From a virus, in UHGV virus genome UHGV-0055581: DNA of 40,858 nt; one strand, written 5' to 3'. The position numbers and the translations under genes were made by a program. Shown here piece by piece: positions 1-128 of this stretch; the first letter of the stretch is position 1; each line of letters begins with the position of its first letter. A model generated the notes under the pieces. That model was not told the origin of the DNA and searched no databases. It saw only the letters and a list, made by a program, of their open reading frames with translations.

Positions 1-128
1 CCATCCAGAGTCTTCGGGTCAGGGTTAAATTCACGGTCGGTGCACTTTAGGTGAATAAGTTGTATATTTGAAATCTCTTTTATTATCAATGAATTAATGT
101 AAGCAGGTCATTATTGGTCAAAATAAAA
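1..128. other. attL: attL: host arm, core repeat (45..55) and P'-arm Int arm-type sites (CAGGTCATTAT / TGGTCAAAAT at 104..124)
   Basis: Arm sites closely resemble the lambda P'1-P'3 arm sequence as I recall it; core differs from the lambda core GCTTTTTTATACTAA. Confidence 0.65.

Follow-up and report, generated by a model that had tools for sequence, protein, structure and literature searches.

An HK022-type attP-int-xis module in a predicted P22-like temperate prophage at the torS-torT site of E. coli

The stretch of viral DNA analysed here (40,858 nucleotides in total, referred to as the window) is read from its sequence, with a probability of roughly 95%, as a complete integrated P22-like temperate prophage that carries an HK022-type attP-int-xis module and is inserted at the canonical HK022 attB between torS and torT of E. 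coli. The prophage is bounded by the two copies of an 11-bp direct repeat, CTTTAGGTGAA, with strand exchange placed within positions 49-55 and 40777-40783, and the sequence holds nothing that contradicts an HK022-type module in a P22-like prophage. The attachment and integration system is of the known HK022 type, with neither a new integrase specificity nor a new mechanism. What the analysis offers for annotation are the exact prophage boundaries, the assignment of the module to the HK022 type and the host locus torS-torT. The features on which this reading is built are listed below by position in the window and strand, with the evidence used for each in brackets.

1-41 (-): host flank on the torS side (the 5' end of RefSeq torS reaches position 34)
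42-48 (+): B, core-type Int site GCACTTT, bacterial half of attL (HK022 attB oligonucleotide; 7+7+7 layout)
49-55 (+): overlap O of attL, AGGTGAA, predicted strand-exchange site (repeat, attP alignment, layout of PMC7736782)
56-62 (+): C', core-type site TAAGTTG, phage half of attL (alignment; same in HK022 and lambda)
42-62: attL core, GCACTTT-AGGTGAA-TAAGTTG (B-O-C')
84-96 (+): putative H' IHF-consensus site TATCAATGAATTA (exact match to WATCAANNNNTTR, at the lambda H' position in the alignment)
105-134 (+): arm-type Int sites P'1, P'2 and P'3 (alignment with lambda and HK022 attP)
105-114 (+): P'1, AGGTCATTAT (alignment; also found in the consensus scan)
115-124 (+): P'2, TGGTCAAAAT (alignment)
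125-134 (+): P'3, AAAATCATTT (alignment)
129-1202 (-): int, 357-aa HK022-type lambda-family tyrosine integrase (identity to HK022 and lambda Int, Pfam)
1180-1398 (-): xis, 72-aa excisionase (identity to HK022 and lambda Xis, Pfam Exc)
1399-1425 (no strand): left boundary of the cassette, on the early-gene side (homology to the closest relative starts at 1426)
40457-40636 (+): outer part of the cassette upstream of the P arm (P22-like backbone homology to the closest relative ends at 40456)
40637-40646 (+): P1, arm-type Int site AGGTCACTAA (alignment and consensus scan; identical to lambda)
40654-40666 (-): putative H1 IHF-consensus site AATCAACCACTTA (consensus match, aligned with lambda H1)
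40668-40677 (-): P2, arm-type Int site CAGTCACTAT (0 consensus mismatches; identical to lambda)
40678-40769 (+): remainder of the P arm (aligned with lambda attP)
40770-40776 (+): C, core-type site ATCCTTT, phage half of attR (identical to HK022 attP)
40777-40783 (+): overlap O of attR, AGGTGAA (repeat, attP alignment)
40784-40790 (+): B', core-type site AAAGGTT, bacterial half of attR (HK022 attB oligonucleotide)
40770-40790: attR core, ATCCTTT-AGGTGAA-AAAGGTT (C-O-B')
40791-40858 (+): host flank on the torT side (torT ATG at 40845)
Joined flanks: rebuilt attB, 21 bp, GCACTTT-AGGTGAA-AAAGGTT (GCACTTTAGGTGAAAAAGGTT)
Joined prophage ends: rebuilt attP, ATCCTTT-AGGTGAA-TAAGTTG (C-O-C'); the junction, with 40783 joined to 56, reads ...ATCCTTTAGGTGAATAAGTTG...

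The core sites were delimited following the published organization of the HK022 attB, 21 bp in which a 7-bp overlap lies between two 7-bp Int core-binding sites (PMC7736782), and the whole attachment sites following the B-O-P' layout, for which Yagil et al. 1989 is cited by PMC6814406, giving attL as B-O-P' (42-134) and attR as P-O-B' (40637-40790). All four core sites (B, B', C and C') have the CTT triplet, which lambda Int and HK022 Int are both reported to need (bioRxiv 10.1101/2023.11.06.565760). The attP rebuilt from both prophage ends was aligned with the annotated attP of HK022 (AF069308 20504-20730), to which it is 90% identical, and with lambda attP (NC_001416), to which it is 72% identical; the 30-bp core region TCATCCTTTAGGTGAATAAGTTGTATATTT is the same as in the annotated HK022 attP. 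The lambda core GCTTTTTTATACTAA, already reported missing in a preliminary description of this DNA, had no match anywhere in the window with up to 3 mismatches allowed, and for this reason and because the flanks are those of torS and torT a diverged lambda core with lambda att specificity was rejected.

That description had also noted arm-type sites close to those of lambda at both ends and a lambda-like integrase, and the alignments agree with it: P1 and P2 are identical to their lambda counterparts and P'1, P'2 and P'3 differ from theirs by 1-2 bases each. Scanning the whole window with the arm-site consensus gave 46 matches against 57 expected, so the scan is uninformative when taken alone and the arm sites are assigned by their position and by the alignment with lambda and HK022. 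Candidate H' and H1 sites for IHF were found by consensus, with no exact-consensus match for H2; apart from such an H2, the arm-type and IHF sites lie, by alignment and consensus, at lambda-like spacing and are accompanied by a lambda/HK022-type Xis. The remainder of the P arm (40678-40769) is aligned with what we take to be, from general knowledge of lambda attP, the Xis/Fis region (X1-X2-F) and the H2 region. Compared with HK022, 5 of the first 50 positions of the P' arm differ, and two changes fall in the stretch aligned to the lambda X2 region.

In the first 3 kb the window is 95.7% identical to phage HK022 from position 45 on, across the annotated attP, integrase and excisionase, and in phage mEp235 the annotation reads 'prophage attachment site (type HK022)'. 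The integrase has the three-domain architecture Arm-DNA-bind_1, Phage_int_SAM_1 and Phage_integrase in Pfam and is identical to HK022 Int at 344 of its 357 residues (96%); it shares 75% identity with lambda Int, with residues 1-55, in the arm-binding domain, the same in both. All six catalytic residues are present in lambda numbering, namely R212, K235, H308, R311, H333 and the nucleophile Y342, and at each of the six specificity positions checked (D99, P282, K283, K287, R319 and R329) the residue is that of HK022, which means that none of the 13 substitutions relative to HK022 Int is catalytic or affects one of these positions. P282, K283, K287 and R319 were reportedly established as determinants of core specificity by Dorgai, Yagil and Weisberg in 1995; in the literature collection searched, no paper was found that prints the substitutions S282P, G283K and R287K. 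Positions 99 and 329 (N99D, H329R) are named as specificity residues in PMC10863862. The excisionase is identical to HK022 Xis at 72 of 72 residues and to lambda Xis at 71 of 72. The window therefore holds what characterizes an HK022-type module: its attB, the shared overlap within a C-O-C' core, and an Int orthologue with the HK022 residues.

By analogy with the established lambda/HK022 pathway, integration and excision with this Int and its slightly diverged arms would proceed as follows. The N-terminal domain of Int would bind the lambda-type arm sites P1, P2 and P'1-3, while its core-binding and catalytic domains, carrying the HK022 residues, would recognize the CTT-containing sites C and C' on the phage and B and B' on the chromosome. 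Int would thus be expected to bridge arm-type and core-type sites on arms bent by IHF and to exchange strands where the 7-bp overlap AGGTGAA begins and ends, with attL and attR as the products; the reverse reaction, excision, would be directed by Xis.

The 13 substitutions in Int, together with the changes in the P' arm and in the X2-aligned stretch, could be taken to indicate that these are genuine integration scars of a prophage now grounded, its Int, Xis or arm sites being no longer functional. Such a loss of function is considered improbable, since int and xis are open over their full length, Int has its catalytic residues and those at the specificity positions intact, Xis is that of HK022, neither att site lacks a part and their overlaps are the same, and the whole P22-like gene set appears intact.

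The remainder of the genome is P22-like. The structural half of the window matches the P22-like podophages Louie, IME10, APC_JM3.2 and epsilon34, and the P22-type gene set was recognized from the annotations of a 99.97%-identical twin, including terminase, portal, scaffold, coat, the tail accessory proteins gp4, gp10 and gp26, and the ejection proteins. Pfam searches of the window returned Head_binding, Arc, Bro-N and P22_AR_C, and an immI-like Arc/antirepressor region is present along with a tailspike that has the P22 head-binding domain. This bears on the idea that the prophage is phage HK022 proper, or a close strain of it, at its normal site, as might be supposed from the length of the window (about 40.9 kb compared with 40,751 bp for HK022) and from int, xis and attP being 96-100% HK022-like. 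HK022 (AF069308), however, matches only within positions 45-2557 of the window, that is, in the cassette alone, and it is classed apart (Hendrixvirinae; Shamshuipovirus), whereas the structural half here is P22-like in its coat, portal and ejection proteins and in the head-binding domain of its tailspike. A genuine HK022 prophage was accordingly rejected as very unlikely.

Several genes within the P22-like part were noted in passing. The tailspike gene (37577-40282, +) encodes 901 aa with the P22 head-binding domain, and its region is 98% identical to the tailspike region of the twin, the prophage of E. coli strain DLL7555. At the C-terminus weak matches to Peptidase_S74 (endosialidase chaperone) and End_tail_spike were obtained; both, at E=1e-4, are close to or short of the Pfam cut-off. 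The protein may have a receptor-binding part that carries an intramolecular chaperone. The immI-like region (34606-37840) is not matched by the DLL7555 twin and contains an ORF with an Arc domain (34974-35357, -), a Bro-N/P22_AR_C antirepressor (35633-36343, +), a 259-aa ORF with no Pfam match (36381-37160, +) and a 217-aa ORF (37187-37840, -) with an Arc domain at residues 140-185. As the mechanically assigned start of the latter lies 264 bp into the tailspike gene, the real start is probably internal. A 181-aa ORF at 28606-29151 (+) has NUMOD4 and HNH_3 domains and is homing-endonuclease-like; it is also found in the DLL7555 twin, and it lies between the counterparts of the genes annotated in the twin as 'packaged DNA stabilization protein' and 'tail needle knob protein'.

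The chromosomal site was determined by joining the flanks of the prophage. Positions 1-55 and 40784-40858 together match, at 130 of 130 positions, the unoccupied intergenic spacer of the divergently oriented E. coli genes torS and torT, which shows that the flanks are contiguous host sequence and that the prophage ends are rightly placed. An empty site, defined as a place covering at least 80% of the 130-bp join, was found in 5,217 of 5,426 complete E. coli genomes. In the Nissle 1917 locus, the end of the torS CDS at locus position 434 corresponds to window position 34, and the start of the torT CDS at locus position 517 to window position 40845. Among the strains with 100% identity to the flanks 1-44 and 40784-40858 are Nissle 1917 and ATCC 11775; in a sample spread over the weaker matches, a K-12 strain had 96.8% identity over window positions 1-62. 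Rfam models at gathering thresholds and a tRNA scan found nothing in the window, so integration is not into a tRNA gene or another known RNA gene.

Two published sequences tie this locus to HK022: the wild-type HK022 attB oligonucleotide ATTCACGGTCGGTGCACTTTAGGTGAAAAAGGTTGAGTCGCAAAGC (PMC5512741) is an exact substring of the rebuilt attB, and the homology arm of a primer used for attL-HK022 engineering (PMC6814406, eLife) matches window positions 6-55 exactly. Of the 5,426 complete E. coli genomes, 195 share the attL junction of the window and 198 its attR junction, an occupancy of ~3.6% that agrees with the published value of about 5% for the HK022 site (PMC6814406). The lambda core is absent, and the arm sites as well as the N-terminal Int domain are lambda-like; the preliminary description had proposed a lambda-family integrase retargeted to a different attB; the different attB and core specificity were borne out, but they are not new, since site, Int and Xis all match the known HK022 specificity. 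An integrase newly retargeted to an attB not described before is hardly credible when attB, overlap, attP core and Int specificity residues are the published HK022 ones, when the rebuilt attB reproduces the published HK022 attB exactly, and when the site is already occupied at the frequency given above.

The direct repeat itself is that of the HK022 attachment site. The window has two + strand copies of CTTTAGGTGAA and no more, at 45-55 and 40773-40783, against a chance expectation of 0.02, and two copies were seen in 0 of 100 shuffles; the repeat can be extended to 15 bp with a single mismatch at offset 11 (T versus A). From the readings of the two junctions as B-O-C' and C-O-B', the 11-bp repeat is not the functional core unit: it is made up of the 7-bp overlap AGGTGAA and the four bases, CTTT, in which B and C agree, while the weaker identity to the right of the repeat is the AAG common to B' and C'. 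An inverted repeat CTTT/AAAG around the 7-bp spacer is visible in the sequence itself. The notion that the repeat is a chance match and the true prophage ends lie elsewhere has nothing in its favour except the shortness of the repeat and is of negligible probability given the expected count of 0.02, the perfect 130-bp host sequence restored by the join, and the exhaustive comparison of the first 400 with the last 459 bases, in which no rival direct repeat exceeded 8 bp. The preliminary description thus holds in its account of the ends: both copies of the 11-bp repeat and the 15-bp extension with one mismatch were found again, the prophage ends it gave as 45-55 and 40773-40783 restore host sequence that is uninterrupted at torS-torT, as it had proposed to check, and no other repeat pair performs better. 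Of the spacings it gave, about 55 bp before the P' sites is measured as 49 bp between the left repeat and P'1, and about 125 bp after P1 as 126 bp between P1 and the right repeat.

The closest relative of the prophage among the complete E. coli genomes, the DLL7555 prophage (NZ_CP186931), is 99.97% identical over window positions 4371-30000 and 96.5-99.7% identical over most of the later region, tailspike included. This twin sits at a tRNA-Thr gene (thrW) beside proA with a different integrase and lacks window positions 45-1425 and 40457-40783; it also differs substantially in the ea-gene region (1729-4370) and in the immI-like region (34641-37531). Because homology to the twin spans positions 1426 to 40456, the HK022-type cassette comprises about 40457-40783 plus 45-1425, roughly 1.7 kb, and the presence of so close a relative at thrW with another integrase indicates that an int-xis-attP cassette of about this size was swapped. 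The right cassette boundary follows shortly after the tailspike terminator (40301-40322); sequence resembling lambda, 434 and Gally starts at about 40361-40403, which places the right junction within about 40361-40456. No complete E. coli genome (0 of 5,426) had this backbone and cassette together covering at least 80% of window positions 1-25000.

We consider it probable that a P22-like phage of the thrW type took up a roughly 1.7-kb HK022-type int-xis-attP unit in a recent, cleanly bounded exchange and so moved to torS-torT, gaining a P'-arm promoter that reprograms host TMAO respiration. Exchange of this kind is ordinary lambdoid mosaicism, unusually clean in the present case, and the pair neatly illustrates how integration cassettes are exchanged between P22-like phages that are nearly identical elsewhere. 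At 1429-1448 (-), where the twin homology starts, a terminator-like hairpin was observed, AAGCCGCCTGATGGCGGTTT and then a run of T, and it may be a recurrent recombination junction for cassette exchange; in the HK022 record X51962 the tL4 terminator is annotated somewhere near the hairpin region. Just past the tailspike end of the twin, at DLL7555 locus positions 3644-3979, lies a truncated pseudogene annotated 'Arm DNA-binding domain-containing protein', adjoining the gene of a MarR-family regulator and the vat gene, which may be the remnant integrase of an earlier thrW element.

The locus matters because of the physiological effect published for HK022 lysogens at torS-torT (PMC6814406). Integration of HK022 parts torS from its IscR-regulated promoter, and in HK022 lysogens torS is read from a promoter that the phage supplies in its P' arm, and the aerobic bet-hedging of torCAD is abolished (PMC6814406). 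By analogy, the insertion described here has likely cut torS off from its IscR-regulated promoter, with transcription from a P'-arm phage promoter instead and suppression of torCAD under aerobic conditions. Two sigma-70-like motifs directed toward torS were noted on the - strand of the P' arm (139-110 and 111-82), where PMC6814406 maps the phage-encoded torS promoter of HK022. The scan of the P' arm found 2 such motifs against 2.0 expected, with no excess over chance, and we do not claim the two motifs as the published torS promoter.

Among known systems the module is closest to HK022, with which it shares attB at torS-torT, the overlap AGGTGAA, the C and C' sites, the arrangement of the arm sites, 96% of Int, 100% of Xis and the residues at Int positions 99, 282, 283, 287, 319 and 329; it differs by the 13 Int substitutions, by about 10% divergence in the arms, and by residing in a P22-like podophage genome and not in an HK022 genome. 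The chromosomal attB of lambda is at gal-bio, unlike the torS-torT site occupied here. Lambda (NC_001416, core 27724-27738) has in common with the module a heterobivalent tyrosine integrase with identical arm-binding residues 1-55, identical P1 and P2 and nearly identical P'1-3 sites, the same spacing of arm and core sites, the same C' site TAAGTTG, and an Xis that differs at 1 of 72 residues. It is set apart by its overlap and its C, B and B' sites, its core being absent here, and by an Int only 75% identical, with the changes concentrated in the core-binding and catalytic domains. Other prophages at attB-HK022 include Stx1a-converting phages as well as mEp235 and mEp506; the Stx1a phage records match the window from its very first base, which takes in the host flank. 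Phage Gally of E. coli LF82 is likewise a P22-like podophage at the torS-torT site (PMC9928086), and its genome (OV696608) carries an HK022-type int-xis cassette that is 94% identical over window positions 45-2556, with 89% identity over 40361-40791. Gally differs in backbone gene content, the best backbone match of the window being the DLL7555 thrW prophage; since Gally has been published as a P22-like phage at this site and its cassette is 94% identical, the combination of backbone type and cassette has already been described.
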